Virus record (IMG/VR): IMGVR_UViG_3300029258_004006
Origin: a virus
Reading direction: 5' to 3' (one strand)
Length of the DNA: 64,000 bases
Shown here: positions 14,606 to 51,034 of the stretch, in pieces
Layout: each line of letters opens with the position of its first letter
How positions within the stretch are numbered: the stretch's first letter is position 1
Translations under genes and position numbers: made by a program
The notes under the pieces: model-generated
Seen by the model: only the letters and a program-made list of their open reading frames with translations
The model's database searches: none
Told to the model about the DNA's origin: nothing

Positions 14606-15551
14606 TTAAATCCGCTTTATTGGCTCGACCATCAGCATCAAAAGACTTTTGTGTGGTAGCCTGATCTTGTGGTGTCCCGACTGGAACCGATTGCATAATT
14701 TGCACGAAGGTGCGTTTATCCAAGTTCCAGAGTTCTACCAAACCAGGCTTATCTGAACCACGGTACATTTGGTGTTCACTAACTGTGTGAGCTTGTTCAA
14801 CTGTCAAGGTACGATCCTGAGTAGCCTTCACTACCTCGGCTTGTTCTCGAACTTCAGGATCTTGAGAAAGAGAGGCTTGTTTGACAGCTACTTGCTGATC
14901 TAACTGTCTTTGTTCTTTGGCTTCCGCGATCTTAGGAGCTAGTGAACGTTTGATTTCCTTCAGAATGCGGGGCTCAATAACTTGTGCCAGAGGAACTCTG
15001 ATTTCACTAGTAGATTCAACGATATTGGCTCCCTCACTAGCGGCTAGATCATCAGCACTCCACAATACTCCAAGAGATTTTTCTAACCGCTCCATTTGCT
15101 GAGCACTTTGATAACTCTGGAAGATAGAGCGAAGTCGGTTGGTTAGATAGTTGACTCGGACTGGATCTCCTAGACCAGCAAAACTTTTGCTGATCTTCCA
15201 AGCCGAATCCAGTATCTGTTCATAGTCAGGTAAAGGAAACACTTGGAGCAGAGCCAACGAAATGCCTGTTACCAATGCATAGGGAACCTGATAGTACGAA
15301 TTAGCCAGGTCCAAAAAACTTTGCGGACCGGTTACGATTTCTGGCCCAATGGAATAAGTTAGAGCGCTACAAACAGCACACTCTCTATCAGGGGCGGAGT
15401 AAAACAGATCAGAGTAGGTGGAAAACCGATCAAAAGTCCATTCCGTGAAAACTATGCCCTTCCAATTCCAACGACGGGGGTTAATGCCCCCAAATTCCAA
15501 GAGAACTTGTCGTTGGAGAGCCTCAGTAGTAGTGGTAGGGGCGGTGGTCAC
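14580..15551 (-). CDS. hypothetical protein upstream of the tape measure
   Basis: 323-aa ORF with a GTG start overlapping the upstream TGA (GTGA). Position is compatible with a tail assembly protein, but no motif supports it. Confidence 0.6.
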   Translation of the reverse strand: MTTAPTTTTEALQRQVLLEFGGINPRRWNWKGIVFTEWTFDRFSTYSDLFYSAPDRECAVCSALTYSIGPEIVTGPQSFLDLANSYYQVPYALVTGISLALLQVFPLPDYEQILDSAWKISKSFAGLGDPVRVNYLTNRLRSIFQSYQSAQQMERLEKSLGVLWSADDLAASEGANIVESTSEIRVPLAQVIEPRILKEIKRSLAPKIAEAKEQRQLDQQVAVKQASLSQDPEVREQAEVVKATQDRTLTVEQAHTVSEHQMYRGSDKPGLVELWNLDKRTFVQIMQSVPVGTPQDQATTQKSFDADGRANKADLIANAPQRT

Positions 15552-16192
15552 AGGTTACCACGTTGTAGAATTTCTTTCTGGCTAGCTACTTGAGCCGAGT
15601 GATCTTCAGGATGTTGGGATGGTGGTGTTTGGTCACTCGCCTCGCTCAGTTGAGCCTTAACTTCCTCTCGTGTAGCATCCTCTTCTGTCGGTTGAGCGGG
15701 TGCTGCGGCGGCGGCTTCAGATTCTACTTTCGTTTGCAGAGAGTCTAAAAACTGCGTATCCATGAAGGTCTTATGACCATCCATCATCATGTTGTAGGCT
15801 GCAACTACTACATCGACGGGAAGTTGATCAACCACGTCCAGTAGATTATTAGCGATGACATGACGAAGGTTGGTATGCCAGACCCAAAAGTCCAGTTTGG
15901 TATAATCACCCGGATAGCCAAGTTCGACGGGATCGATATCCAATTCATCAAATATCAAAACCGGTTCTTCATCGCGAAGACGAACCTGATAAGTAGCCAT
16001 GGCTAAAGTTCTACGGGCGGCTGATTGGATTTGACTCATCCGGCTGGTACCATCCACACCAGCAGCCACCCAACGAGCAGGCTCTCCACTGAGAGGGTAG
16101 CAGTTGAAGAAATACCCCGGTAAAATTTCTACCCATACGAAAGCTGCTTCACCGTTGAGTCGGTTTACTAGATCATCTAGTATGCGTGGCAC
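15548..16192 (-). CDS. hypothetical protein
   Basis: 214-aa ORF with an acidic C-terminal third. Confidence 0.6.
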   Translation of the reverse strand: MPRILDDLVNRLNGEAAFVWVEILPGYFFNCYPLSGEPARWVAAGVDGTSRMSQIQSAARRTLAMATYQVRLRDEEPVLIFDELDIDPVELGYPGDYTKLDFWVWHTNLRHVIANNLLDVVDQLPVDVVVAAYNMMMDGHKTFMDTQFLDSLQTKVESEAAAAAPAQPTEEDATREEVKAQLSEASDQTPPSQHPEDHSAQVASQKEILQRGNL

Positions 16193-17350: not shown

Positions 17351-18046
17351 CTAGTCGTAAGGGTCAAATGATACATCATAAGCGTAGAAGCACCAATCGA
17401 CGTTTACCTTTTGGTATAGTAGGTTCTTAAAGGTAACCACAAAACCACAAACGTTGGGGTCGCAGTAAGGCACAACCTCTGATCTGGTTATGGAATCATC
17501 GTCGGTAATTATTACGAGGTCTGCCTCGGTGAAGTTTTGTGGGAACTCATATCCCTCAAACGCCACCCCATACACACCATTTTCTAATTGACCTACTACA
17601 TAGCCATAACCATTGAAGGCGGTTCCGTCGTTATTGACACACCCTAGGGCTACAGCATAAAGGTCTTCGCCATCAGCGCCATCGGTACCATCAGCGCCAT
17701 CTGTTCCATCAGCGCCATCTGTTCCATCAGCGCCATCTGTTCCATCAGCGCCATCTGTTCCATCTGTTCCATCGGTACCATCTGTTCCATCAGCACCATC
17801 AGCACCATCAGCACCATCAGCACCATCAGCACCATCAGCACCAGTTTCACCCTGGGGTCCTGCTTCACCTTGAAGGCCGGGCAGGCCCTGAAGAAGAGGT
17901 GGTCTATTAGCCTCTTGGGCATTATCGATTACTTCACTAATGAATGCGGCAGTTCCGACTCCTAATAGGTCTACACCAGAGACGGGGCATCCCCCGCTAA
18001 GAACCGGAATAAGAACAAGTGCCAATACAATACAATAACGTTTCAT
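17351..18046 (-). CDS. collagen-like repeat lipoprotein
   Basis: Signal peptide and lipobox VLSGG|C. About 30 G-X-Y triplets follow (GLPGLQGEAGPQGETGADGADG...GTDGADGED), then a globular C-terminal domain. Confidence 0.7.
   Translation of the reverse strand: MKRYCIVLALVLIPVLSGGCPVSGVDLLGVGTAAFISEVIDNAQEANRPPLLQGLPGLQGEAGPQGETGADGADGADGADGADGADGTDGTDGTDGTDGADGTDGADGTDGADGTDGADGTDGADGEDLYAVALGCVNNDGTAFNGYGYVVGQLENGVYGVAFEGYEFPQNFTEADLVIITDDDSITRSEVVPYCDPNVCGFVVTFKNLLYQKVNVDWCFYAYDVSFDPYD
17669..17842 (-). repeat. in-frame tandem 9-bp / 18-bp repeats encoding G-[AT]-D collagen-like triplets
   Basis: Plus strand reads catcagcgc / catctgttc / catcggtac / catcagcac units about 19 times. catcagcgccatctgttc occurs x4 and catcagcac x6. 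Confidence 0.85.
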
Positions 18047-18057
18047 TGCGGATTCCT

Positions 18058-21000
18058 TTAGTAAACACCCTGTTCATCCGGGACCAAATAACGACCCAGG
18101 ACCGGTGCGATGAACGCTTGAGCAGGAGTAATCTCTCCAAAACCAGACCGATTTACACCGGTAAACAATTTGAGGACACCTGCATCATTGACCAGGTTAA
18201 CCAAGGCGACTAGACCCGAAGTAATAGGAGGTAGACCAGTGAGAGTAGCCCTACCAGCCTGCGGGGTAGACCAAGTAACACGAGTTACTGATTCGTCTAT
18301 GTTTTCCACAGAGTTGGGGAATACATCGGTCCAGGTACCCATGACATCTTCATAGAACTTGGCAGTCACAACACGTGTGCCGAATCCATGTGTGATGGTC
18401 CATACGGTAGATGGAATGGTTTGATTATGAACCAATTGACTACCGGTGTCACTCTTAGGCTCAAGCAAGTCACCCTTGGGATAAGCAAGAGCGGTTACCT
18501 TATCGATCCACACCCCGGCTATAGGAATATCTGACACGAAGGGATAAGACTTCAAGTCCATGACTGCGGTATCACCACGCACATACAGGGATGGGTCAAG
18601 AGCAGCGTTGCGACCAGCATCACCAATGATGTGTTTAACACCACCGAACTGAGGGAAGACCTGACCAATGGGGGTCAAGTAATTGGCACCCGGATTAGCT
18701 GTACCATCTGTTGTGGCTATAAAGCGACCTTCAGATAAGAAGTAAAGCTGATCAGCGGTAGCTGTGGAGAGAAGCTGGAATTGTTCTTGTCTGGGCAACA
18801 TGTTGTACCAGACTCGAATTATATCTGATTGATCCAGGTGACGGCTTTGGATTACACCTAGGTAAGCACTAGGTGCCACACCTGTTACCAGACTACCGTT
18901 TCGTGTTCCCGTGGTGGTTTGATAAACAAAGCTGCCTACCTCCAAGTTGCCTCCGGCTGGAACCGGACCAACTCGATCACGGGTTAACATGCGAACGAAG
19001 CCACGCATTCCCGGACGCCAATCAAGATAAACCTGACCTGGTTCCATGGGATGAATGGTCAGGGTATCGCCCGGATTAATGGCTCCACTAAAAGCACTAT
19101 CAACCTCGACTTCTTGCGTGGTGTGATCATAGGCAATGATGAGACGAAGCTCTCCAGCCGAACCGGTAGACGAGCCAATAACCTGTAACCATTCACCCAC
19201 GTACGATCCAGCAACAGTAGAACCGCTGGTCAAGATGACATGCGTAGGAGCACCACCGGGTGTGGAGCTAGTGGCAACGCCATTGAAAGTAAAGTTATCC
19301 AGATTAACCAAGTCCCCATCGATAAGGGGATAAGCAGTAGAACCATCTTCAGCTAGAAGGGGCAGGCCCTCGGTAACGTGGCGGAAACCACCGCCAGCGG
19401 GATAAAGAATTTGACACCAGATTACGCAAGTTTCACCGGAGTGAGCAGCGTGATCAGTTACATCGACCACACAAGCTGCTGAACTAGTGCCCAGGCCGCT
19501 CCAAGGAGTTGACAGAACCACTGACGAAATGTTACCTGATGCGTCCACCCAATGCATAATTGGGGCTGTAGTATGGACATATGGGTCTCCGCTCAGAGAA
19601 GTTGTATTCAGAGTAACTGCTCGACTGGAGGGGTCATATGTCAGGAGATTAGCGGGATTTTCTGAGCCAGGTAGACCTTGAGTAAAGCGGCTCACCATAT
19701 CCATGAGATTAGCTTTATCTGACCAGTGATTTCGGCAGTTGTCTGGGAACATGGTCAGAGAAGCATCATTACCCTCATCCAGCCAAACACCGACTTGGTG
19801 TCCAGCACCGAAAGGATTGTTAGTCCCAATGCCCCCGCCTGTTAGCATGTTGGTACCTCGGATACCATTTCCAGAGATGGCACCAGAAGCAACACCAAAC
19901 TCATCCTCTCCCCAATCCACCACGTTTTGGCCAGACAGTAAAGCCTGCGACATGGATTCCATGATAGTTGAAAGGCCATTCAACAGCACTGTATGACGGA
20001 AGTCACAAATGTCCTGAGGATAGACCACATCAAAGAATTGGGCGTCTGGACGACCGTTCTGGCCACCACCACCGGCTAGACTGCCTTGGGTACCATCAGC
20101 GGTATTCAGGGCAGAACCATTGCCATTGGTATGACTCCAAATGTCTTGGTTACGACGGTGGATACCACACAGAGGAATAGCGTAGACAAAACCATCGACA
20201 GTTTCTAGACCAGAACCAGTTTTGTCTCCAGCCCCACCAGTACCAGCCCGGAATAACATGGTATCACCCAACAGTTCATTCATCTGCTGGAAGATTTTAC
20301 CAGAGACGGGTGCGCCAGTTGCGCCACGTGCCTCAACGGCTGCGTTATCGATACCGAATGGTGTAGCACCGGCTGGATCGAGCCAATCAGCACTGGCTGG
20401 ACCATCAATTACACGAACACGATATCGGATTTGGAAATATTGGCCATTGGTTTGGTGGCCAATGGTACTTACTACGGCAGGATCCACAGGATCAGCAACT
20501 GAGCCACCAACGTAATCAACGTTGCCATACGGGAAGAACGTTGGACTGGTAGTGCTGACTTCTTCCATCCAGACTTCTAGGAAGACCAAGTCCTGCCGAT
20601 ACCCAGTTCCAGGGGCGGCTGACAAAGTAATAGGGAATTCCCAACCGCTGGTATCGTCTTGAATCAACGACAGAAGAGTGCCATTGACCAGAGCCAATGG
20701 TGCTTCTCGGCCAATATCGTGGCGAGCGAGCAGGAATTGATTGGCGACGGTTAGATCACAATAGACACCAGGGAATGCGGGAGTAAGACCAGCAAAGGGT
20801 CTACGTGAACCCAAATTAGTGAAACCGCTCTTACCAAGTGCTTGGGCCAAACCGCGAAGACGACCCAAGGCGTTTTCACCACTAGCAAGTAAACTACTAG
20901 CAGAGGAAACAGGTTCCCAGGCGGAATTGCCACCCACATAGAAAACACCTGCACCAATGTCATACAGGAGCCTACCTAGATCGGCAGGATTACTGTAGGT

Positions 21001-21081
21001 AGGGAGAGAATTAGGTGGAACGGAAGTATCCACCCTCTGGACGATGATTGGCCCAGTTGCTTCAATTTTATGAAACTTCAT
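18058..21081 (-). CDS. large tail fibre / receptor-binding structural protein
   Basis: 1007 aa. N-terminal fibre-like motif GRLLYDIGAGVFYVGGNSAWEPV. Gly/Thr/Ser-rich. C-terminal module VWTITHGFGTRVV...WSTPQAG is shared with 16859-17341. Confidence 0.6.
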   Translation of the reverse strand: MKFHKIEATGPIIVQRVDTSVPPNSLPTYSNPADLGRLLYDIGAGVFYVGGNSAWEPVSSASSLLASGENALGRLRGLAQALGKSGFTNLGSRRPFAGLTPAFPGVYCDLTVANQFLLARHDIGREAPLALVNGTLLSLIQDDTSGWEFPITLSAAPGTGYRQDLVFLEVWMEEVSTTSPTFFPYGNVDYVGGSVADPVDPAVVSTIGHQTNGQYFQIRYRVRVIDGPASADWLDPAGATPFGIDNAAVEARGATGAPVSGKIFQQMNELLGDTMLFRAGTGGAGDKTGSGLETVDGFVYAIPLCGIHRRNQDIWSHTNGNGSALNTADGTQGSLAGGGGQNGRPDAQFFDVVYPQDICDFRHTVLLNGLSTIMESMSQALLSGQNVVDWGEDEFGVASGAISGNGIRGTNMLTGGGIGTNNPFGAGHQVGVWLDEGNDASLTMFPDNCRNHWSDKANLMDMVSRFTQGLPGSENPANLLTYDPSSRAVTLNTTSLSGDPYVHTTAPIMHWVDASGNISSVVLSTPWSGLGTSSAACVVDVTDHAAHSGETCVIWCQILYPAGGGFRHVTEGLPLLAEDGSTAYPLIDGDLVNLDNFTFNGVATSSTPGGAPTHVILTSGSTVAGSYVGEWLQVIGSSTGSAGELRLIIAYDHTTQEVEVDSAFSGAINPGDTLTIHPMEPGQVYLDWRPGMRGFVRMLTRDRVGPVPAGGNLEVGSFVYQTTTGTRNGSLVTGVAPSAYLGVIQSRHLDQSDIIRVWYNMLPRQEQFQLLSTATADQLYFLSEGRFIATTDGTANPGANYLTPIGQVFPQFGGVKHIIGDAGRNAALDPSLYVRGDTAVMDLKSYPFVSDIPIAGVWIDKVTALAYPKGDLLEPKSDTGSQLVHNQTIPSTVWTITHGFGTRVVTAKFYEDVMGTWTDVFPNSVENIDESVTRVTWSTPQAGRATLTGLPPITSGLVALVNLVNDAGVLKLFTGVNRSGFGEITPAQAFIAPVLGRYLVPDEQGVY

Positions 21082-21139
21082 CTAGTTTCTCCTTCGTGGT
21101 AACTTGTCCCGATTCAACACCATGTTGAATCGTCGAAGG
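21082..21139 (-). promoter_or_regulatory. conserved 5' leader RNA motif, copy 1 (SD-sequestering stem plus inner hairpin)
   Basis: Minus strand reads CCTTCGACG-ATTCAACATGGTGTTGAAT-CGGGACAA-GTTACCACGAAGGAG-AAACTAG-ATG. CCTTCG can pair with CGAAGG of the SD. The inner hairpin CGATTCAACA/TGTTGAATCG has 10 bp. Confidence 0.6.
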
Positions 21140-21148
21140 TACATAGAC

Positions 21149-22189
21149 CTAATGGACTGGTTTTTGTTGCCCCTTCCGACGAATAGCTTGATTCAAGGCT
21201 TTGTTCTGTGTGACGAGTTTACGAATTTCAGTTTGTCCGCTTGCTAGACCTTTGAGTATTTCCAGCATCCTATCGATAGATTTCTCCAATCTCTTGATGT
21301 CACCCTTACCCCGGAGAAAATCAAAGAGCCCCGATTGAATAGGAGTGCTTTCTACTATTTCTGATACCGTGGCTAGTTCAGCGTAGATTCGATCCCACGG
21401 ATCTGGATGGCATTCGGCCAGCAACAAACATTGTGAGGCCAATACTGATTTGATAGGCCCGGACTGATTACCAATTACTTGAACTGGGCAATTTAGGGCC
21501 ATGGCTACGTTTTGTGGAGCTTGTTGTTCAAATGGGCTACTGTGCCACTTCCAATACAAAGACCCCGACCCAGGCTGACTGAGCGTGTCCCTGATCTTCT
21601 GGCCATTATCTCGATAAGGGATTTTCTGGGAGCCAAACCAGAATTCGGCGATTTGGGATCCAGTTTGGCCTCGCCAAACATCAAACCCTTTCTTCCTGAT
21701 TTCCTCTAGATCGGGGGTTTGATTGAGGAGGTGATAGGTAGCTTGGCTTGGGGACTCCATCACCTCTAGTACAATGGCATCCCCAGGTAAACCGGGGAAT
21801 TCGACCAACAAACGATTTGGGAACCCTTTGGTTTTCTGTCCCAGAAACCTGGACTCCCGAAGTGGTTTCGGACCGATCATCTGTCTAACTGATTCAATAA
21901 TCGGGGTTGCCCAGTTTTTTGGATTGGAAGAGACCACACGGCGCTGCTCACCAGCCAAAGTGATAACAGCCGAAAGGCTTTTATTTTTTTGTAATAGAAC
22001 AACCAAATCACTAGGACGAAAATGGACACCAACTTCAAAAGGTTTCTTGCCCACAGCCGCTTTGTATAGCAGAGTGAGTATCCCTTTGTTTTGTTTAGCA
22101 GAATAAATCTCGGCTTGGTTAGTGACCAGCCTTATTTCGCGGAGCAAGGGCTTGACTAAATTGGTTTTGATTCGCTTTAAGACAGTCAT
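21149..22189 (-). CDS. hypothetical protein
   Basis: 346-aa minus ORF. Confidence 0.6.
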   Translation of the reverse strand: MTVLKRIKTNLVKPLLREIRLVTNQAEIYSAKQNKGILTLLYKAAVGKKPFEVGVHFRPSDLVVLLQKNKSLSAVITLAGEQRRVVSSNPKNWATPIIESVRQMIGPKPLRESRFLGQKTKGFPNRLLVEFPGLPGDAIVLEVMESPSQATYHLLNQTPDLEEIRKKGFDVWRGQTGSQIAEFWFGSQKIPYRDNGQKIRDTLSQPGSGSLYWKWHSSPFEQQAPQNVAMALNCPVQVIGNQSGPIKSVLASQCLLLAECHPDPWDRIYAELATVSEIVESTPIQSGLFDFLRGKGDIKRLEKSIDRMLEILKGLASGQTEIRKLVTQNKALNQAIRRKGQQKPVH

Positions 22190-22197
22190 TATAAGAC

Positions 22198-22779
22198 CTA
22201 CTTATTGGGGGTACCGATTGGACCCTCGGTCCGTTCCCTTGCCCATTTTCCACTATAACCTTTACCCCAGGTATTAGTGCCTTGGCGGAAAGTACGTCCA
22301 CCCATTGTACGAACTTGCATCCGACGATCACGAGCAGACATACCCGCCATGCCTTTGCCAAAACGACCCTGAGGACTGGTATTCCATCCGCGTCCCAAGT
22401 AGCTACGTTCGAATGGCTGGTGGGGCATGGTAGCTACGAATCCAATATAATGTAATTGGTTATCGAATAGCCCCTTTTCAATACCCACTCGAAGCTTGTC
22501 ATACAACAGAGCAATTTTGTTGAGAGGATTCATGCCCACTTCGATCACAATAGGATCTGAAGCGAACTGGACTGCTGCTCTTGCTGGCCACGGCATAGTT
22601 CCGTGCTCAAATCGCATAGCAGACATCCAGTGGTGTGGAATGTCCTTGAATTGCGCACTGAGAGTATACTGCGGCATCATCAGATAGAAGATACCCCAGT
22701 CATTATGGAATCCCTCAAATATGGGATTCGGAATATGCTGTAGTTGCAAATCAGGACGAATAGTGAGGGTCTGTGACAT
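22198..22779 (-). CDS. hypothetical structural-module protein
   Basis: ATG at 22779 (MSQTLTIRPD) sits directly after leader copy 2. The track ORF starts 39 nt earlier, inside the leader. Confidence 0.6.
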   Translation of the reverse strand: MSQTLTIRPDLQLQHIPNPIFEGFHNDWGIFYLMMPQYTLSAQFKDIPHHWMSAMRFEHGTMPWPARAAVQFASDPIVIEVGMNPLNKIALLYDKLRVGIEKGLFDNQLHYIGFVATMPHQPFERSYLGRGWNTSPQGRFGKGMAGMSARDRRMQVRTMGGRTFRQGTNTWGKGYSGKWARERTEGPIGTPNK

Positions 22780-22832
22780 ACTAAAAACTCCTTCGTGGTA
22801 ACTTTGTCCCGGCACCACTTAGCCGTCGAAGG
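22780..22832 (-). promoter_or_regulatory. conserved 5' leader RNA motif, copy 2
   Basis: Minus strand reads CCTTCGACG-GCTAAGTGGTGC-CGGGACAAAGTTACCACGAAGGAG-TTTTTAGT-ATG. The three conserved blocks match copy 1. The inner hairpin has a different sequence but can still pair (CGGC/GCCG). Confidence 0.6.
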
Positions 22833-22838
22833 AAAGGG

Positions 22839-24107
22839 TTATTGTGATTGTTGTTCTATATAAGTCTTAATTCTGTTTACAAATTGCTTATAATTGGTCT
22901 TCCCCTCCGTAAAGACAAACACTCTATAGCCTGCTTTTTTCAATTTCGACATTTTAGTTTTAATAGCCTGTTGTCTTTTCTTATCCCCATAGAGGAAATC
23001 GGACTGGTGCGCGGTTCCATCATACTCCACCACCAGGTTTAATTTGTGATTAATGGCATCTACGACTGCCCGAAGATTATCTATGCCAGGGGATTTCCTT
23101 CGTTCAAAAAGAACACCTGTATCACGTTGCAAAGTGCTGATAAATGTTTCTTCGGCTCCACTACTAATCTTGGTCAGACCTAATCGCCGAATAAACTCTG
23201 ACCAATTCCCAAAGACATGTTCTGCATGGGCAGCAGTGTACCGTTTACTATGTTTGTTAAAGAGGGGACGAGTCAAGAACTCTCTTCCCGTGTCTTGCTT
23301 GATCAGTTTTACGATCCGGCGACCTTCCAACATCAAAGCCATATCTGGCTTCACCAAGGAACGGTCCATAATTTTGTGTGTTTTGACATCTTGAGTTTTG
23401 GTGATATAAGTGGTGTGTTGTTCCGGTACAAAAACATCTTCCCACCCCTTAGTGGTTTTACACCGAAAAATGTACCCCAACCGAGCGTGGCCATCTAGTA
23501 GAACAACTGAGTGTTTCTCATCAGCTTTCTTAGTTTTACGAAGTTTATGGCCTTTTCGTAAACTTAACTTGGTTTGAATCCGGTCACGACCCGTATTGAG
23601 GCCATAAGCGATAGCCTCTGGTACCCACACCTTAATTTTGTCGTCTACGAATTGAACTTGAACCAAACCACGTTTGGGATTAAAATCAATTGTCTTTGCC
23701 CAGAACCATGCTAATCCACCTGTCTTAGCAGCTACGGGATTGTCATTTTTATCGAGCCAGATTTTGACCTTCTTATTTAAGGATCGTTTAAGAGTCCACT
23801 TACGGGCCTTGTCTTGAACTACTCGATAAACTGTCATAGGACGAATAGTAGAGTATTCACCACCAGGACTAGCCATTCCTACTGCCATCGCTTGGAGATC
23901 ATGGCGAGTATAAAATCCTGGAGCAGGACCAAGCCCAATCTTCTCTAAAGCCTCGACAAACCGAGAGAATTGACTCCGCTTGGGAAACCTATGCACATAT
24001 TCTGGCCAAGTAGTAGAGGTGGTGGGTCGACCTTTTCCCGGCCAATCCAAAAACTCTTCTAGGTGAATACTGGTACCTATGCGTTGTAGTAGCTGAGTGA
24101 AAGTCAT
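22839..24107 (-). CDS. protein with C-terminal PD-(D/E)XK (DUF559/Vsr-like) endonuclease-like domain
   Basis: C-terminus AVVDAINHKLNLVVEYDGTAHQ...LKKAGYRVFVFTE fits the D...(I/V)E.DG..H...G..V..F pattern of Vsr/DUF559 nucleases. Possible homing endonuclease. Confidence 0.45.
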   Translation of the reverse strand: MTFTQLLQRIGTSIHLEEFLDWPGKGRPTTSTTWPEYVHRFPKRSQFSRFVEALEKIGLGPAPGFYTRHDLQAMAVGMASPGGEYSTIRPMTVYRVVQDKARKWTLKRSLNKKVKIWLDKNDNPVAAKTGGLAWFWAKTIDFNPKRGLVQVQFVDDKIKVWVPEAIAYGLNTGRDRIQTKLSLRKGHKLRKTKKADEKHSVVLLDGHARLGYIFRCKTTKGWEDVFVPEQHTTYITKTQDVKTHKIMDRSLVKPDMALMLEGRRIVKLIKQDTGREFLTRPLFNKHSKRYTAAHAEHVFGNWSEFIRRLGLTKISSGAEETFISTLQRDTGVLFERRKSPGIDNLRAVVDAINHKLNLVVEYDGTAHQSDFLYGDKKRQQAIKTKMSKLKKAGYRVFVFTEGKTNYKQFVNRIKTYIEQQSQ

Positions 24108-27814: not shown

Positions 27815-27834
27815 ATACTTTCAGATTTTAAAAG

Positions 27835-27924
27835 GGGGCGAAGAGAGATTCGAACTCCCACGGCCCGTTCAACTAACGGGGTGCTACCCAAGTCGCTTTT
27901 CAACACGATTACATCATTCGCCCC
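27835..27924 (-). ncRNA. tRNA-like element (non-canonical; expanded D region)
   Basis: Read on the minus strand: acceptor GGGCGAA/TTCGCCC, an extra 5' G opposite C73, and U8. T arm is GGGAG-TTCGAAT-CTCTC. A 5-bp stem CCCGT/ACGGG carries the 7-nt loop TAGTTGA. About 34 nt sit where a 17-nt D arm should be, and they do not fold canonically. Confidence 0.4.
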
Positions 27925-29958: not shown

Positions 29959-29990
29959 AAAATAAAGACCGGTGGGGCCGAAGCCCCACC
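29959..29990 (-). terminator. rho-independent terminator after the capsid-like gene
   Basis: Minus strand reads GGTGGGGC-TTCG-GCCCCACC (8-bp GC stem, UUCG tetraloop) followed by GGTCTTTATTTTAT. It lies 27 nt after the stop at 30018. Confidence 0.75.
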
Positions 29991-30017
29991 AGTCCAGGGG
30001 GAGGAGGAAGGTCTGGT

Positions 30018-31214: not shown

Positions 31215-31265
31215 TAGCGGGATGAGGATTCGAACCTACGAATAGACCCAGAACATCTTCCCGCG
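31215..31265 (-). ncRNA. truncated tRNA-like remnant (acceptor, one 4-bp arm and T-loop only)
   Basis: Minus strand reads CGCGGGA-AG-ATGTTCTGGGTCTATTC-GTAGG-TTCGAAT-CCTCA-TCCCGCT-A. The acceptor pairs at 6 of 7 positions and the T loop is canonical. The T stem has only 3 bp and there is no D arm. Confidence 0.3.
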
Positions 31266-31270
31266 ATACA

Positions 31271-31306: not shown

Positions 31307-31858
31307 TTAGTCGTCTTTTTCCAGCAGCGCTTTCAAAGCCGCTGCAACAGGACGATATCGTTTACTATACTGCTTGATCTTGGCCTTGTTACGCTTGCGG
31401 CGTAATTTAGCCAAACGGTAAGCTTTGGGATCAGTGCGCTTCAGCCCACCACGAGCCGCAGTGCGCTTACGCTTTCTGGCGGCGGCTGCTTTTGCTTTGG
31501 CAGAACGTCGTTTGACGCTCTCCAGACCACTCAGCCAGGTAGCGACTTCCTGAGCGTCGTCTTCGCTACCATCGCTCAGAACATCCAGTACATCGGTAAG
31601 GCTGTAATTACTTTCCAATTCATCATCACCAGGACTGTCCTGATCATCACCACTGGTAAGATACTCGATGAGATCATCCATCATCTCTTCGTCAGCCATA
31701 TCGTCGTCGTCGTCTTCATCACTGGTCTCTTCTTCATCACGGTTCAGAAGATCCTTGATGTCTTCCTCGTCTAGACCCTCGATGAGTTCATTAACCTCAT
31801 CCGATGAATCATCCAGATCCAGATCGCCGAGAAGTTCCTGCAACATTTCCATATCCAT
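31307..31858 (-). CDS. hypothetical protein, hyper-acidic N-terminal two-thirds and poly-basic C-terminus
   Basis: Contains DEEETSDEDDDDDMADEEMMDD... and then KRRSAKAKAAAARKRKRTAARGGLKR...KLRRKRNKAKIKQYSKRYR. Scaffold or internal-protein position. Confidence 0.6.
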   Translation of the reverse strand: MDMEMLQELLGDLDLDDSSDEVNELIEGLDEEDIKDLLNRDEEETSDEDDDDDMADEEMMDDLIEYLTSGDDQDSPGDDELESNYSLTDVLDVLSDGSEDDAQEVATWLSGLESVKRRSAKAKAAAARKRKRTAARGGLKRTDPKAYRLAKLRRKRNKAKIKQYSKRYRPVAAALKALLEKDD

Positions 31859-31867
31859 GGTTATCTC

Positions 31868-32545
31868 CTATTCATCGTCTTCGTCGTCTTCGTCCTCTGC
31901 GTTGAGGAGATTTTGAAGAATCTCAAAGTCCTCTTCCGCAGAGTCATCATCCGACAAAGCAGCTATTAGGTCGTCTTCAACGGCTTCTAAGGCAATGGAT
32001 TGACTGTTTTCAACAATTACCTTAACTAAGGATTCTTCTCCATCGGCTGAAAGAACACTAGCAATAATGTAACCATCACCCGTAGCCGAATCCAAATTGA
32101 TGAAGTGAGGATCAACTGATTCAGTTAGATTGTCTGGGTTCTTTTCGTCCCAACTTGTCGAAATTAAACCAGCGATAAGGGGGTCTTCTTCAGAATGAGT
32201 CTCAAGATCCTCGGAAATACCAAGATCTTCATTAAACTTGAGACTAATTTCCTCGATTTGAGCAGTAATCGTTCCAACCTTGGTGAGTAGTTGCTCTAGT
32301 TGTTTAAAAGGAACCGCTTCAATTGCATTGGCGGCTCTACAAAGAGCACCAGCTTCAAGCTGAATGTCTTCGCTTTCCTTATCATCATTATCTAGAGTAT
32401 CCCTAGCGGCCGTTAGGAAGGCGGCTATCGGATTCAAGGCTTCGGATTGCAACTCCTGTACCGCTTTGATAGAGCTTTTTACAACTTTATCGAGGCTGAG
32501 AAGAAGGTCCAACTTTGGTGCAACTCGTTTCATATCGTCGTTCAT
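31868..32545 (-). CDS. hypothetical acidic protein (scaffold-like position)
   Basis: 225 aa ending NAEDEDDEDDE. Confidence 0.6.
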   Translation of the reverse strand: MNDDMKRVAPKLDLLLSLDKVVKSSIKAVQELQSEALNPIAAFLTAARDTLDNDDKESEDIQLEAGALCRAANAIEAVPFKQLEQLLTKVGTITAQIEEISLKFNEDLGISEDLETHSEEDPLIAGLISTSWDEKNPDNLTESVDPHFINLDSATGDGYIIASVLSADGEESLVKVIVENSQSIALEAVEDDLIAALSDDDSAEEDFEILQNLLNAEDEDDEDDE

Positions 32546-33326: not shown

Positions 33327-34178
33327 CTAGTCTTGGGTACCACGAAGAGTTTGACGGAACCGATCACGCACATCTTGCGGTTGCCCGCCGTTTCCAGTTG
33401 TCAAACTAACAGAATTGTCCTCAAGTTGAGAAGCCAGACTCTGAGTATCTTCATTGCCCTCTTCGAGGACAGCAGCACTCATGTCTTTCTTCTCTAACAT
33501 CCCAATTTGAGATTCCAATTCACTCAATGCATCCTCGGACAAATTCATCCATTCTACGGCCTTAGAGACCAGAGTTTGGAGAGTTTCCTGACCACCTTCT
33601 TCAAATATACTTTCCACGATGGTGTAGGGGTTAGCCACCCCATTGCTGGAAAGGACATCAAAGAAGTGGGCCTTGAGCGGATTGTCCACCAAGTTCTTGG
33701 CCATTGCTGAGTTGGCCATCTCGGCCGCTCGCGTAAACCGCTTGATGAAGGTGTCCCTAATTTGGCCTTCGTCAACGCCAGATTTTTCAATCTGAACTAC
33801 ATGGCCATTACTGATGATATTCGCCTTAACTGATTCTAAAGCATTCTTCCAAGTGTTCTGAGTCTTGACGGCTTCCAATACCGCCGATTTGTACTCAGAA
33901 CTGGAAAAATACGAAGCGATCGCATCTGAATTGTCCTGATCAGATAGACAGATAGTGGCAACTGGATCAACACCTTCGCAGATGACCCAGGAGACATTTC
34001 CATCCTGTGAACGGACCATAAACATATCGGTCGATTCGCTGGTATCCAACCGCTTTACTACTTCCGAAAGCAGATTAGTGTCATCGCCTAGTGGGGGTGA
34101 TCCCACTGGTTCTGCGTCTGCCTTGATAGCACTAAGACGGCCTTCTACCTCTTCCCGAAGGGCAGAAATATTCGGCAT
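33327..34178 (-). CDS. hypothetical protein, first gene after the long non-coding region
   Basis: ATG 34178 with AGGAG 8 nt upstream. Confidence 0.65.
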   Translation of the reverse strand: MPNISALREEVEGRLSAIKADAEPVGSPPLGDDTNLLSEVVKRLDTSESTDMFMVRSQDGNVSWVICEGVDPVATICLSDQDNSDAIASYFSSSEYKSAVLEAVKTQNTWKNALESVKANIISNGHVVQIEKSGVDEGQIRDTFIKRFTRAAEMANSAMAKNLVDNPLKAHFFDVLSSNGVANPYTIVESIFEEGGQETLQTLVSKAVEWMNLSEDALSELESQIGMLEKKDMSAAVLEEGNEDTQSLASQLEDNSVSLTTGNGGQPQDVRDRFRQTLRGTQD

Positions 34179-34219
34179 TTCAACGCTCCTAACATGGTAA
34201 CAATTTTTGATGTATGCTT

Positions 34220-34267
34220 ATATCGCCAAAGAAAATTGGCAGCTAATATCGCCAAAGGAAATTGGCA
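34220..34267. promoter_or_regulatory. two tandem 22-bp repeats, each containing a GCCAA-N6-TTGGC palindrome
   Basis: atatcgccaaagaaaattggca (34220-34241) and atatcgccaaaggaaattggca (34246-34267). Period is 26 bp, with one mismatch. Confidence 0.5.
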
Positions 34268-34271
34268 AGCT

Positions 34272-34290
34272 GTTACCAGCTCGTGGTAAC
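34272..34290. promoter_or_regulatory. inverted repeat GTTACCA-N5-TGGTAAC
   Basis: gttaccagctcgtggtaac. On the minus strand it shares the 10-mer GTTACCACGA with the conserved leader motif. Confidence 0.4.
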
Positions 34291-34526
34291 AAACACTAAA
34301 GTTGTATCATCAGGAGATGATCTGCGTCGTCTGAGTCGGTCTATCTGACCTCCCAACGATGCAGAAATGGGGAGGGATCACTAAAATTACACCTCTAAAA
34401 GAGGCTCACTTCTATTTACGAGTGTGTTACAGGAAGGAAATTTGAGGCTAATTGGTAGGCTAAAAACCTACTTGGTACACCGCCGCCTCTTCTTTTCGGG
34501 AGAGATTAAGTGGAGCACGTTTCTTC

Positions 34527-41568: not shown

Positions 41569-42357
41569 CTAACGATTAGGACACAAAATCAGACCACTGC
41601 GAATCTCCAGTTCTTCCAGCGTAACAGTGTAGTTCTGAAAGTTGGCCTTGCGAGGTGTATCCTGGGGCAAAAGATAAGCTGTCGGAGTTTCCCCTCTGAT
41701 CATCACGATTTTCCAAAAAGCGGAGGGAACACAGTGGGGTTCATCTGCTCCAGGTAATTGAGGCATGCTATCGTCTTCGAATAGTGGGCCGGTGAGAATC
41801 CAGGTTTCCCCATGTTCCCATGTCAGTTCTCGCACGTAGATTTCCAATCCTAGCCAAGTTCCCTGATTGAGACCAGGATACTGAGGTGCGATGTTGCTCA
41901 GATAGTTTACTTGAGAAGCATCTTTGGACCCCCGGAAAGAAGCCAATGGAGCTAGGTGACCCCGATCAAAATCACTGGCTCCCTTGTAGTCGGCTGGTTC
42001 CAAAGTTTCAGCCGGATCCAATAGAGGATCACTTCTCCACACCCGAGCTAAATCCAGTGTTCCTCTTGTTTTACTGGGGGTTAAGTGATAAGCCACCCAG
42101 TCTGCTAGCTTGGTTTCGATGTTAGCACTAAGGGCGTAAGATTCACGCACAACAATGACATTGGTTTCGGGGGTGCCGATTGGACAACCAAAAAGGAAAT
42201 GTTCACATCGAATCTGACCGGTGGGGAAGGGGATGGGAGCAACAGCCATTAAAGGCTTGGGGGTAGAAACGGTGAGCGTCAAGAATGCCCGGATGAGGAT
42301 GATGAGACAAATCGAGCACACAATCCACGTACAAGTCCGACGGGGTTTAGTCGACAT
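41569..42357 (-). CDS. DNA/RNA non-specific endonuclease (Serratia/NucA/EndoG family) with N-terminal membrane anchor or signal
   Basis: DRGHLAP...NIAPQYPGLNQGTW signature. N-terminus MSTKPRRTCTWIVCSICLIILIRAFLTLTV. Start moved to ATG 42357. Confidence 0.85.
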   Translation of the reverse strand: MSTKPRRTCTWIVCSICLIILIRAFLTLTVSTPKPLMAVAPIPFPTGQIRCEHFLFGCPIGTPETNVIVVRESYALSANIETKLADWVAYHLTPSKTRGTLDLARVWRSDPLLDPAETLEPADYKGASDFDRGHLAPLASFRGSKDASQVNYLSNIAPQYPGLNQGTWLGLEIYVRELTWEHGETWILTGPLFEDDSMPQLPGADEPHCVPSAFWKIVMIRGETPTAYLLPQDTPRKANFQNYTVTLEELEIRSGLILCPNR

Positions 42358-42886
42358 GAAGTTTCTCCCAACCGGTTTCTGGATAGTACACGCGATTGCC
42401 ATCAAAAATGTAAATTAGCATATAGTCGTCCCCCAAGTTGCTATTGGTGAAACATCTGTGTCCGCCTTCATAAATCAACAGGTAATTCCCACCGCCAATC
42501 CACATCCAGCTATCAGTCACGAAATTCCACAGATACAGTTCTTTGCTAAACCACGTGTAATAGCTGTATTTCTTGCATTTTTTATAACCCGGCGGTATTA
42601 CATATACTGAATCATCCCTGGTCACTTCTAAAACTGGAGTCGTTTCTATCTTTTGACACTTCCTCATTTTCAGACACTGTTTACAGGTAACGCGCTGCCA
42701 ATGGGGGCTGGTACGACTCTCACTTGCCCAAAACTCCAACCCACATACCGCAAAATCATACGAGCCATAATTAACTACCCTCCCGCCTTGATATCCTCGG
42801 TCTCTACGTTTCCGCTTATGTATAATCTTTCGCTTCTCTAAAGGCTGCGGGCTACTTACCGTCATCTCATTTCCTAACCGGGCCAT
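42347..42886 (-). CDS. hypothetical protein, translationally linked to the nuclease gene
   Basis: 179-aa ORF with a basic N-terminus. Overlaps the nuclease start by 11 nt. Confidence 0.55.
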   Translation of the reverse strand: MARLGNEMTVSSPQPLEKRKIIHKRKRRDRGYQGGRVVNYGSYDFAVCGLEFWASESRTSPHWQRVTCKQCLKMRKCQKIETTPVLEVTRDDSVYVIPPGYKKCKKYSYYTWFSKELYLWNFVTDSWMWIGGGNYLLIYEGGHRCFTNSNLGDDYMLIYIFDGNRVYYPETGWEKLHVD

Positions 42887-43535
42887 AGACGGTAGGATCG
42901 GTTACCTCGGCTAACCGAAATGCCTCTCGTCGTTCCACACAGGTTCCACATTTACCGCAATGAGTGACTTGTCCTTTGTAGCATGACCATGTCTCCCCGA
43001 AGGGCACGTGTAATTCATGACCGAGACGGCATATCCTGGTTTTATCATACCGAAGAAAGGGAGTCCAAATAGGTACCGGATAATAATGACACACATCAGC
43101 GATCTGAGACAAGGCTATCACAAAGGCTGGTCTACAGTCTGGGTAGATGGAGTGATCCCCAGCGTGAGCAGCATAAGCCACGGCGTCATATTTCTCATTG
43201 ATGCAACACCCAATAGCGATCGATAACATGATCATATTACGATTGGGAACTACCGTGGTCTGCATATTCTTGTCAGCATAATGCCCCTCCGGCACCACCG
43301 TTGCTGAATCCATCAAAGCGTTATCGCCCAAGAGTTGACCCACGGAACGTAAGTCTAAGATATGATGGGGACACTTATACTCGATTGCCAAAGCGGCTGC
43401 GGCTTCGATCTCCCGTCGTCCGTGTTTCTGACCGTAATTGAAGGTCAAACACTGACAAGTATGGCCTTGTGCCAATAAACTGGCCAGAAGTACAGTAGAA
43501 TCCATCCCACCGGATAGGGATACAATCACTTTCAC
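42867..43535 (-). CDS. queC: 7-cyano-7-deazaguanine synthase
   Basis: VIVSLSGGMDSTV, NYGQKHGRRE, VVPNRNMIM, HSIYPDCRPAF and SCYKGQVTHCGKCGTCVERREAF. GTG start 43535 overlaps the upstream TGA (GTGA). Confidence 0.85.
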   Translation of the reverse strand: MKVIVSLSGGMDSTVLLASLLAQGHTCQCLTFNYGQKHGRREIEAAAALAIEYKCPHHILDLRSVGQLLGDNALMDSATVVPEGHYADKNMQTTVVPNRNMIMLSIAIGCCINEKYDAVAYAAHAGDHSIYPDCRPAFVIALSQIADVCHYYPVPIWTPFLRYDKTRICRLGHELHVPFGETWSCYKGQVTHCGKCGTCVERREAFRLAEVTDPTVYGPVRK

Positions 43536-44476
43536 TGGGGTGCCTCCGCCAACATCGGAATTTCCGAGGACACGGCTCGAAGAATATCGCGTTTGTATTC
43601 CCCTGCCACATCGGGAGTCCCCAGGGACAAAGATTTGCACTGCTTTTCATAAGCGGTTTGCATCAGAAACAGGATCATCAACGTTATGGGATCAAACTTC
43701 TTAAATCCAGGTAGGGACCATACTTCTACCAGACGTAGTTGGTCCGTCTCCTGGAAATATAAGATCAACCCCAGTGGTTTGCCCTCGAATTCGAGTACCA
43801 GAGCCTCTGCGTGAATTCCGGCCAGAATCAAATAGTCCCAACGTGATTTGTTGGTCGTCGCCCATTTGGTAAGAGGGGTCTCTTTTAGAGGCGAAGTAAG
43901 ATGTTGCAATTCCCCAAACCAAAAATCTGGGGTCTTTGGCTGACTTACCACCTTGGGGCTAAACTTTCGCCAGGTCGTTCGAGTATAACGACAATCAGTA
44001 CCTTTCAAGTGGCTCTCAAAATCAGAAGCGGCAAGAGGTAAAATCAATTCTGTCTGAGTCGGAATCCCCTCCCCATACAGCAGCTTGATCAGAGATTCAA
44101 AATCGGGGCCACTTAAAGCCAGGAGGTTTCTAGTCAAGCCGAGGTTGTTCAAAGGAAAGACTAGCAGTGGAGTGTAGCCATCATCCTTCATCTCTGATAC
44201 ACGAACAATGCCACTCTGCTCCCGTTTAGCAATTAGATGAAGGATACCGGGTGGAACATCCAAATTAATAGGGTTTAGGCCCTGAATTCCCCTCATTAAA
44301 ACATCAGACCATTCTTGGTGGTGTTCAACCAAAAAACACCGGCCATCACGTTCTACTCGTGTACCTAGCTGGGGACGAGGGGGTTTATCCCGTTTAACAA
44401 CCAATCGTTTAGATCGTGTTTTCTTCTTAACGGCTGGTTTTGATGGTAATGACGACGACGTCATGTTATCTCTCAA
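43532..44476 (-). CDS. hypothetical protein, C-terminal third GNAT/FemAB-like (weak)
   Basis: ALVLEFEGKPLGLILYFQETDQLRLVEVWSLPGFKKFDPITLMILFLMQTAYEKQCKSLSLG resembles acyl/aminoacyl-transferase folds. By eye only. Confidence 0.5.
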   Translation of the reverse strand: MRDNMTSSSLPSKPAVKKKTRSKRLVVKRDKPPRPQLGTRVERDGRCFLVEHHQEWSDVLMRGIQGLNPINLDVPPGILHLIAKREQSGIVRVSEMKDDGYTPLLVFPLNNLGLTRNLLALSGPDFESLIKLLYGEGIPTQTELILPLAASDFESHLKGTDCRYTRTTWRKFSPKVVSQPKTPDFWFGELQHLTSPLKETPLTKWATTNKSRWDYLILAGIHAEALVLEFEGKPLGLILYFQETDQLRLVEVWSLPGFKKFDPITLMILFLMQTAYEKQCKSLSLGTPDVAGEYKRDILRAVSSEIPMLAEAPQ

Positions 44477-49991: not shown

Positions 49992-51034
49992 CTATTCTCC
50001 TTGCAATCCGCCACGCAAGACACGTCTACTTCCAGGGCCGTGCATAGCCTGTCCTTTAGCGTAGCTAAGTTTACACCATAGTGGGCGGCTAACTCTTGTA
50101 TCGAGTCCTGCCTTCCACCAGTGTGTTCTAGGGGAAATGCCAGCCGCCCGTTGATCACATCACACAAGAATTTATTCTCTGGGGAATTGGCTCCAAATTG
50201 ACCACGAAGTTCATCGATCATATCGACTATTCTAAAACCTTCTTCAGCGGTAGAAGGGAGAATCTGACTATGGGTACACTGTTCTTGTGGTGAGTGAGTG
50301 GCATCGATTGATTGAGTTCGAACGCGGAATCCATTTGATCTACTATAGGTATGGTAAGACCGTTTAACAGCACTGTAATAACGCGCCCGATCACACATAT
50401 GAGAGTTAGCTACAAAAGTGATGATTTTTTGACCTTCGGTCATTCCCGCCCAGTGCCGCCAAAACAAATTAACGACTGCTTTATACCGAATTTCTCCTAT
50501 GAAATCATCGGCACAACAATACATATCAATCAAATATTTGTATTTATGACCCCGACAAAGGGACATGGTGATCTGAGTTATATATGGGTCATACCGGGTA
50601 ACCAAATCATGATAAGTGGGAGCCGGTTGAATCATCATCTCAGGATCGGGGTAGTAGAGAATCTTGGGACAACCCTGCTTTACCCACCAGTGGGCAAGGA
50701 TATCGAAATCTTGAGGTTTGGCTTGGAAAAACCGTACGGCCCGCGAAGGGGTCATGGATTCATAATAGAAGACAGCAAAAAAAGCCATACTGGCCCGGAG
50801 AGATGACTCAGAAGTGGTGATACCCCTCTTAAAATCACTGGTAGATTCCCAGACCACCCCATTCTTACCAAGAAATTTGCTCCTTAGGTTAGCAAAGCGG
50901 ACCCCAGTTTGTCCTAGTCCACACGCCTCGCAAAACATTAGATTGACAAATTTTTGGATCTCACCCCTAGGGGCCGCCCCCACCACTTCTGCCCTAAATT
51001 TCCGCAACGCCTGGACGATCAAGGTAACCCTCAC
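49988..51034 (-). CDS. hypothetical protein with C-terminal sigma-70 region-4-like HTH (weak)
   Basis: DSIQELAAHYGVNLATLKDRLCTALE. Confidence 0.55.
   Translation of the reverse strand: MRVTLIVQALRKFRAEVVGAAPRGEIQKFVNLMFCEACGLGQTGVRFANLRSKFLGKNGVVWESTSDFKRGITTSESSLRASMAFFAVFYYESMTPSRAVRFFQAKPQDFDILAHWWVKQGCPKILYYPDPEMMIQPAPTYHDLVTRYDPYITQITMSLCRGHKYKYLIDMYCCADDFIGEIRYKAVVNLFWRHWAGMTEGQKIITFVANSHMCDRARYYSAVKRSYHTYSRSNGFRVRTQSIDATHSPQEQCTHSQILPSTAEEGFRIVDMIDELRGQFGANSPENKFLCDVINGRLAFPLEHTGGRQDSIQELAAHYGVNLATLKDRLCTALEVDVSCVADCKENR

Follow-up and report, generated by a model that had tools for sequence, protein, structure and literature searches.

The window analysed here, a stretch of 64,000 nucleotides (nt) from a virus (IMG/VR record IMGVR_UViG_3300029258_004006), contains two intercistronic spacers that end in the same strong Shine-Dalgarno (SD) sequence and begin with an exact complement of its 5' half. 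We tentatively regard them as paralogous copies, A and B, of an RNA leader of about 55 nt, which would act in cis on the start of translation at the following cistron, within a long polycistronic late (tail-module) transcript. The window belongs to a metagenomic contig of 262.5 kb (ENA ERZ27256770, k141_1680089) that stems from an uncultured jumbo phage, and nearly all of the window's genes lie on the minus strand. Coordinates refer to the window, the leaders are read on the minus strand, and the copy count spans about 84 kb of the genome of about 262 kb.

Two copies of an intercistronic leader

Both copies precede neighbouring genes in sense orientation. The first-pass annotation, made from the letters of the window, had described three blocks common to the two spacers (21139-21082 and 22832-22780) and in the same order, CCTTCGACG, CGGGACAA(A) and GTTACCACGAAGGAG, followed by 7-8 nt and ATG; this layout was confirmed at these positions of the minus strand. 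The parts were located by sequence reading and, for the inner hairpins, also by folding:

21082-21139, minus: copy A leader, filling the gap from the stop codon of a 346-amino-acid (aa) open reading frame (ORF; stop at 21151-21149) to the ATG of a 1007-aa gene (21081)
21139-21131, minus: block 1 of copy A, CCTTCGACG
21134-21139, minus: anti-SD arm of copy A, CCUUCG, with its partner CGAAGG at 21096-21091
21132-21110, minus: inner hairpin of copy A, CGATTCAACA/TGG/TGTTGAATCG, stem of 10 base pairs (bp), loop UGG
21111-21104, minus: block CGGGACAA of copy A
21103-21089, minus: 15-mer GTTACCACGAAGGAG of copy A, followed by 7 nt and the ATG at 21081
21089-21111, minus: entire 3' block of copy A, CGGGACAA-GTTACCACGAAGGAG, holding the unpaired loop (GGGACAAGUUACCA), the 3' arm of the outer helix and the SD
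22780-22834, minus: copy B leader, filling the gap from the stop codon of a 422-aa ORF (22841-22839) to the ATG of a 193-aa gene (22779)
22832-22824, minus: block 1 of copy B, CCTTCGACG
22827-22834, minus: anti-SD arm of copy B, UUCCUUCG, pairing with CGAAGGAG at 22795-22788 (8 bp including one U-G)
22825-22810, minus: inner hairpin of copy B, CGGC/TAAGTGGT/GCCG (as RNA CGGC/UAAGUGGU/GCCG)
22811-22803, minus: block CGGGACAAA of copy B
22802-22788, minus: 15-mer GTTACCACGAAGGAG of copy B, followed by 8 nt and the ATG at 22779
22788-22811, minus: entire 3' block of copy B, CGGGACAAA-GTTACCACGAAGGAG

The full layout is thus CCTTCGACG-attcaacatggtgttgaat-CGGGACAA-GTTACCACGAAGGAG-aaactag-ATG in copy A and CCTTCGACG-gctaagtggtgc-CGGGACAAA-GTTACCACGAAGGAG-tttttagt-ATG in copy B. 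The strong SD (GAAGGAG) closes each copy 7-8 nt ahead of the ATG. The 5' half of this SD is formed by the conserved CGAAGG, to which the conserved 5' block CCUUCG is exactly complementary; the first-pass annotation had already claimed this complementarity, and sequence reading bore it out. Between the two complementary segments lie an apical hairpin of mostly different sequence and an invariant stretch of 14-15 nt, GGGACAA(A)GUUACCA. Among the 32 block positions no difference was found, while the centre between the blocks is largely replaced and differs in length (12 vs 19 nt). Perfectly kept complementary blocks around a replaced, length-variable centre do not fit uniform neutral decay. The stop codon of the upstream ORF lies 6-9 nt before the start of each copy; these upstream ORFs are themselves weakly signalled.

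A covariance model was built from both copies and run with filters off on the window, on flanking sequence of this genome (about 20 kb) and on the contigs of two distant relatives. Copy A scored 87.5 bits and copy B 78.1 bits; the next-best match, with 13 bits, was the opposite-strand reading of copy A's own palindrome, and everything else stayed at or below 12 bits. By this distance in score the similarity of the two copies is far beyond chance. No further copy was present in any of these sequences, and the 15-mer GTTACCACGAAGGAG occurs exactly twice in the window. The spacers are also exceptional in their size: only three in the tail module of about 25 kb exceed 30 nt, copies A and B being two of them, and the other genes overlap or are less than 30 nt apart. 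The leader elements were identical across all contigs that carry them.

Beyond these sequences, the exact 15-mer gave 25 matches in IMG/VR, all attributable to chance and none with the upstream blocks. The pattern GGGACAA-N0-1-GTTACCACGAAGG had zero matches in JGI metagenomes or GTDB genomes, and blastn of both copies against GenBank phages returned just short chance matches. The pattern search of the genome and of related phages, which had been proposed as a check, therefore yielded nothing beyond the two copies in about 84 kb and in the databases searched. The nearest capsid relatives among 5.8 billion proteins are 55-58 % identical and are encoded on contigs of at most 6.3 kb that do not reach the leader region. 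On one distant contig of seemingly syntenic order, the gene for the fibre homologue overlaps the one before it, and a leader is absent.

A riboswitch or thermosensor, both named as options in the first-pass annotation, found no support. Rfam 15 had no match to the whole window at gathering thresholds; with E values up to 10 the sole overlap in 20900-23000 was freshwater-2, with 18.4 bits vs a gathering threshold of 49.9 and E = 9.2. A preQ1-like pseudoknot was considered because the phage encodes QueC, and was rejected for want of Rfam support. The QueC homologue itself (42867-43640, minus; Pfam E = 1e-58) suggests a 7-deazaguanine modification of the phage DNA; a gene for a non-specific DNA/RNA endonuclease is located nearby (41569-42405).

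Predicted fold and pairing of the Shine-Dalgarno sequence

Folding gave both copies a common architecture: an outer helix CCUUCG:CGAAGG, which reaches 8 bp in copy B; a bulge of one base; an inner hairpin, whose stem has 10 bp in A and 4 bp in B; and a 3' stretch. The CCUUCG:CGAAGG pairing is present in the minimum-energy fold of both copies, and GGGACAA(A)GUUACCA is predicted to be essentially unpaired, save a weak 2-bp pairing. The outer helix reached a probability of 0.95-1.0 in copy A and 0.84-0.99 in copy B in the contexts -62/+6 and -80/+30, and of about 0.6 and 0.54, respectively, in a context of 210 nt. Copy A folded with -19.2 kcal/mol (z = -2.7 vs shuffles). In copy B the whole GGAG is paired.

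The inner hairpins had been described as different in sequence and covarying. Their sequences differ largely, but both contain (A/G)TGGTG. Two of the ten shared pairs covary (A-U to G-C and U-A to C-G), both at the base of the inner hairpin, but the other eight are invariant. Such a covariation is compatible with an RNA-structure model and proves nothing. Counted in support of a leader were the sense orientation, the SD at the end, the same SD-ATG spacing in both copies, and an inner-hairpin base that keeps its pairing through two double changes.

A further pairing is offered by the loop of copy B, in which GUGGU(G) is complementary to (U)ACCAC of the conserved block. The UGGUG:UACCA(C) duplex was calculated with -4.7 kcal/mol for copy A and -8.3 kcal/mol for copy B, and the alternative fold of copy B lies just 2 kcal/mol above the minimum. 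We treat this pairing as a lead only; its joint chance probability was estimated post hoc at about 0.02.

A leader peptide was considered and rejected. The ATG in the hairpin loop of copy A opens an ORF of 13 codons that ends at a TAG abutting the main ATG, and this arrangement is not matched in copy B: there the corresponding GTG shares the frame of the main ORF, and translation would run through the conserved block in another frame.

The exclusion of a terminator by the missing U-tract holds for copy A and for the inner hairpins, but not for copy B, in which UUUUU directly follows the outer helix. The terminator scan flagged neither element, and the U5 of copy B follows a helix that encloses a large internal loop. 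A scan for sigma-70-like promoters called no site at 21082-21148 or 22780-22838, with the limit that the phage's own sigma-like factor may use non-canonical promoters. A promoter inside the element was also rejected, as the -35/-10 assignments gave either an inconsistent spacing (16 vs 23 nt) or a start site within the ORF. Outside the window, the same genome encodes a 373-aa protein with a Sigma70_r3 domain (14944-16065 of that piece); because of this protein the promoters of late or middle genes may deviate from the canonical form and escape a consensus scan. Near-consensus sigma-70 promoters (TTGACA-17 nt-TATAAT) lie upstream of the starts at 51034 and 59711 on the minus strand, in the extended context ACTTGACAAAGGG...TATAATGGGG; these are probably early promoters.

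Recurrence of the GTTACCAYG motif

The core of the invariant loop is not confined to the leaders. Echoes of GTTACCA(C/T)G had been noted at 34290-34272 and 34201-34193, and they proved to be statistically real, because the motif occurs five times in the window vs 0.74 expected and none of 100 shuffles reached five. Four of the five lie in intergenic sequence, which makes up 3.7 kb (5.7 %) of the window, and all four are on the sense strand. The distance from the motif start to the ATG is 22 nt in copy A, 23 nt in copy B and 23 nt before a 283-aa gene at 34178, each time with an SD within 1-3 nt after the motif. Besides the leaders, the motif is found at:

34193-34201, minus: third copy, GTTACCATG, 23 nt before the ATG of the 283-aa gene (34178), followed by TTAGGAG
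34272-34290, minus: fourth copy, GTTACCACGA, with 10 nt identical to A and B (34290-34281), forming the palindrome GTTACCA-CGAGC-TGGTAAC
15554-15562: fifth copy, in reverse orientation (CGTGGTAAC on the sense strand), 2 nt before a GTG start at 15551

This distribution suggests a recognised motif, on RNA or on DNA. The fifth copy is also the perfect complement of the leaders' GUUACCACG. The spacer of 348 nt before the 283-aa gene (34179-34526, minus) resembles a complex control region: the palindrome at 34290-34272 overlaps a possible hairpin with a GUAA tetraloop, and two direct repeats of 26 nt, GCCAATTT(C/T)CTTTGGCGATAT(T/A)AGC, follow at 34267-34216 (minus), each with a GCCAA/TTGGC palindrome inside.

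Proposed translational control by the leader

As general mechanism we lean, with somewhat less than even confidence, towards translational control at the RNA level, and both a coupling to upstream translation and a trans-acting factor were considered. In ribosome-free RNA, the closing helix of 6-8 bp would keep the SD's first half paired and lower initiation. A ribosome terminating on the upstream ORF, 6-9 nt upstream, could open this helix, since its footprint would extend to the 5' arm, which is clearer for copy B than for A. Alternatively, the helix would be opened or locked by a trans-acting phage factor reading the invariant loop, whose core GUUACCAYG recurs at -22/-23 from a third start codon. 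The element also supplies an independent strong start site for a gene that follows an accessory ORF. The earlier claim of a cis-regulatory RNA is partly supported, namely by the complementary blocks that persist despite variable spacing, by a spacer filled on the sense strand and by the high local probability of the outer helix.

Several results weigh against a functional leader. Only two copies are present in about 84 kb of the genome, and the collections searched held no relative that bears the leader. The proposed covariance-model check separates the copies well from all other sequences, but their covariation score was equalled by 118 of 500 shuffles; with just two sequences and two covarying pairs the covariation has no statistical power, and the inner hairpins cannot count as independent sequences because UGGUG is common to both. 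Copy B, with -15.4 kcal/mol and z = -0.3, folds no better than its shuffles. In a context of 400 nt the probability of the outer helix falls to 0.08 in copy A and 0.15 in copy B. The proposed sequestration of the SD stands for the local helix, but not as an unusual property: the predicted pairing of the SD zone, 0.62 in A and 0.64 in B, is mid-range among 67 window genes, and a perfect complement of at least 6 nt to the -18..-5 zone occurs upstream of 7 of 68 genes, so SD pairing by itself is unremarkable. In copy A, the 5' half of the SD alone lies in the helix. Finally, the identity of the copies could reflect a recent recombination or gene conversion and not selection; the explanations are not fully exclusive, as recombination can have spread a leader that is functional.

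A more specific form of translational control would make GUUACCAYG at -22/-23 the mark of a small phage-specific regulon with three members, namely the gene that opens the head operon (34178), the 193-aa gene and the fibre-like gene, read by a trans-factor, either a protein or an RNA bearing CGUGGUAAC. In copies A and B the motif would lie inside the anti-SD switch, and binding or a loop-tail pseudoknot (UGGUG:UACCA) would decide whether the SD is free. Such a regulon, which we hold to be unlikely, would be a system of a new sequence family resembling either the Com/mom activator or the RegA repressor. RegA is one repressor acting on several mRNAs.

Gene neighbourhood and a possible recombination origin

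The order of the tail module on the minus strand is a 291-aa ORF, the 422-aa ORF, copy B, the 193-aa gene, the 346-aa gene, copy A, the 1007-aa gene and a collagen-like fibre gene of 231 aa. The genes next to the leaders are:

22839-24107, minus: 422-aa ORF, homing-endonuclease-like (borderline matches to DUF559, E = 4.5e-4, and to HNH_repeat, E = 8e-3; phrog_559 'HNH endonuclease')
21149-22779, minus: ORFan pair bracketed by the copies, 193 aa (22198-22779) and 346 aa (21149-22189)
18058-21081, minus: 1007-aa fibre-like gene, adjoining the collagen-like fibre gene

The copies were first reported to precede two structural genes. For the 1007-aa product this may stand: its neighbourhood and a distant homologue point to a fibre-like protein, with 32 % identity between its N-terminal part of about 350 aa and a 1023-aa protein that another phage contig encodes in its tail module, and with matches that cover just 20-34 % of the fibre-like protein. 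The basic 193-aa product, in contrast, is an ORFan without a homologue among 5.8 billion proteins. The 346-aa protein had a single partial match, to a 55-aa repeat, among 1.84 billion representatives. AlphaFold models of the two ORFans were too poor to use, with a predicted local distance difference test (pLDDT) of 32 for the 193-aa and 39 for the 346-aa protein. Sequence searches of the PDB with the 422-aa and 346-aa proteins were uninformative, and a comparison of these two ORFs, each upstream of a leader, found them unrelated. The DUF559 match of the 422-aa ORF is of the Vsr-like nuclease type; free-standing Vsr-like homing endonucleases are known in phages (PMC2677866). Together with its 291-aa neighbour this ORF has a lower GC content, 0.43 vs 0.46-0.50.

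The copies bracket two ORFans beside a homing-endonuclease-like gene, and therefore an explanation at the DNA level has to be weighed. The spacers could be recombination linkers or duplicated translation-start cassettes similar to the promoter-early stem-loops (PeSL) of T4-like phages: direct repeats left by, or mediating, the insertion of the 193-aa and 346-aa genes, with SD supply as their sole function and a hairpin that is incidental or a recombination or structural signal. We consider this origin, the chief competitor of translational control, possible, though on the unlikely side. It accounts for direct repeats that bracket the two ORFans exactly and for the low-GC, endonuclease-like ORF just upstream of copy B. 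T4-type PeSL cassettes likewise end in SD and ATG, hold a stem-loop and flank ORFans (PMC2839356). Reuse of start regions also occurs in this genome, as a second near-identical pair, ATAAGGAG[A/G]TGTACCTTGGCA[A/G]CT, is found at 10241-10218 and 26929-26906 on the minus strand; this pair serves TTG-start genes, an 85-aa ORF and a 196-aa tail-tube-like protein. However, the defining part of a PeSL, a sigma-70-type promoter, was not found in the element, there are only two copies, and all 7 contigs with these genes have the same arrangement, none of them lacking the cassette. A recent duplication also leaves unexplained why the centre is replaced between intact, mutually complementary flanks, and why GTTACCAYG stands at the same offset before a third gene.

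Possible binding site on DNA or processing of the transcript

GTTACCA(CGA) may also be read as a protein-binding site on DNA, either an operator half-site of a phage regulator or the recognition site of the neighbouring endonuclease. At 34290-34272 the 10-mer is part of a perfect inverted repeat of 7 bp around 5 nt (GTTACCA-N5-TGGTAAC), the form expected of a dimeric site, the fifth motif copy lies in opposite orientation 2 nt before the start at 15551, and the inner hairpin of copy A is a perfect DNA palindrome. I-TevI provides a precedent for an endonuclease that doubles as repressor at an operator resembling its homing site (PMC2988022). Copies A and B, however, are without a matching inverted half-site and without a recognisable promoter beside them for an operator control, and a DNA site does not account for the fixed distance to SD and ATG, for the sense bias (four of five copies) or for the conserved anti-SD block. 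We consider this reading unlikely.

RNase III usually needs about 20 bp (about two helical turns) of near-continuous double-stranded RNA. The least probable account is an RNA processing or stability element, that is, an RNase III or RNase E type cleavage site or a protective 5' stem-loop, by which the late transcript would be divided and the cistron downstream made more stable, with copy B possibly a weak attenuator: the intercistronic position in a long unidirectional transcription unit, the UUUUU after the outer helix of copy B and a two-helix shape with internal loop, which we take to be loosely like T7 RNase III sites, agree with it, but the stacked helices stay below this length, with a total of 12 bp in copy B (8+4) and 16 bp in copy A (6+10), split by a one-sided loop of 14-15 nt, the U-run is missing in copy A, neither element was flagged as terminator, and a helix built from the SD is left unexplained.

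Further features of the window

With its counterparts in jumbo phages of Erwinia and Dickeya (about 265 kb), the major head protein shares about 33 % identity. About 25 nt downstream of its gene lies a strong intrinsic terminator (29966-29995, minus) with a 13-bp stem, a UUCG loop and a U-tract. The repeat number of the collagen-like fibre gene (17351-18046) differs between otherwise identical contigs (219 vs 231 aa). For the gene with its start at 31858, an anti-SD of 7 nt (ATCTCCT) precedes the SD (AGGAGAT) by 35 nt (region 31859-31900, minus); this anti-SD lies within the upstream ORF and may be another case of translation-dependent unmasking. Fragments similar to tRNA, with a T-arm of the GGTTCGAATCC type and complementary acceptor-like ends, are present in the spacers at about 27830-27915 and 31215-31270 (minus); neither ARAGORN nor Rfam called them as tRNA.

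Comparison with known systems

The closest systems are the phage helices that sequester translation initiation regions, as in T4 e, soc, 49, 25, 26 and I-TevI, further in segB and in mobE of Aeh1 (PMC3014915, PMC2988022). As proposed here, the SD of a late gene is paired by a helix of the leader inside longer polycistronic transcripts, in a large lytic phage and with adjoining endonuclease genes (PMC3014915, PMC2988022). In T4, a late promoter sits inside the hairpin, and late transcripts are without the 5' arm for this reason; here no such promoter is recognisable, since TATAAATA is absent from both copies and no sigma-70-like site was called, although the phage's own promoters may be non-canonical. 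The regulated genes also differ, as they lie downstream of the endonuclease-like gene and are not that gene itself, and the helix, with just 6-8 bp, encloses an internal loop that is large and conserved.

A small phage protein, Com of Mu, binds a sequence-specific site beside the mom structure and opens it (PMC6483171). The translation-inhibiting structure includes the start signals in mom as in the leaders (PMC6483171), but no Com-like protein or Com motif was identified here, and a trans-factor would be inferred purely from the invariant loop and the recurrence of GUUACCAYG. The operator of T4 gp43 likewise combines a hairpin with an adjacent single-stranded segment that shares nucleotides with the ribosome-binding site and is recognised by a phage protein (PMC3014915). 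The leaders have no sequence similarity to the gp43 and RegA operators, they precede fibre-like and ORFan genes, and a cognate protein is putative.

In the PeSL of T4-like phages, recombination between copies shuffles genes (PMC2839356, PMC4122927), and the two spacers would resemble them in this. The PeSL, however, combine a terminator-like GC stem with a strong sigma-70 promoter and exist in tens of copies in early hyperplastic regions, whereas the elements described here have no recognisable promoter and are found in two copies in a late tail module. If they are just recombination linkers, they document a PeSL-like shuffling of cassettes outside the T4 group. If the leader is functional, it would be a compact, portable example of how a jumbo phage sets translation for each cistron in its very long late transcripts, it would illustrate the restoring or gating of expression after inserted accessory or selfish genes, and GUUACCAYG would offer a handle for tracing the regulator. 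Either outcome is incremental, as SD-masking leaders and repeat-flanked ORFan cassettes are well known in phages: the kind of element is already known, its sequence family is new.

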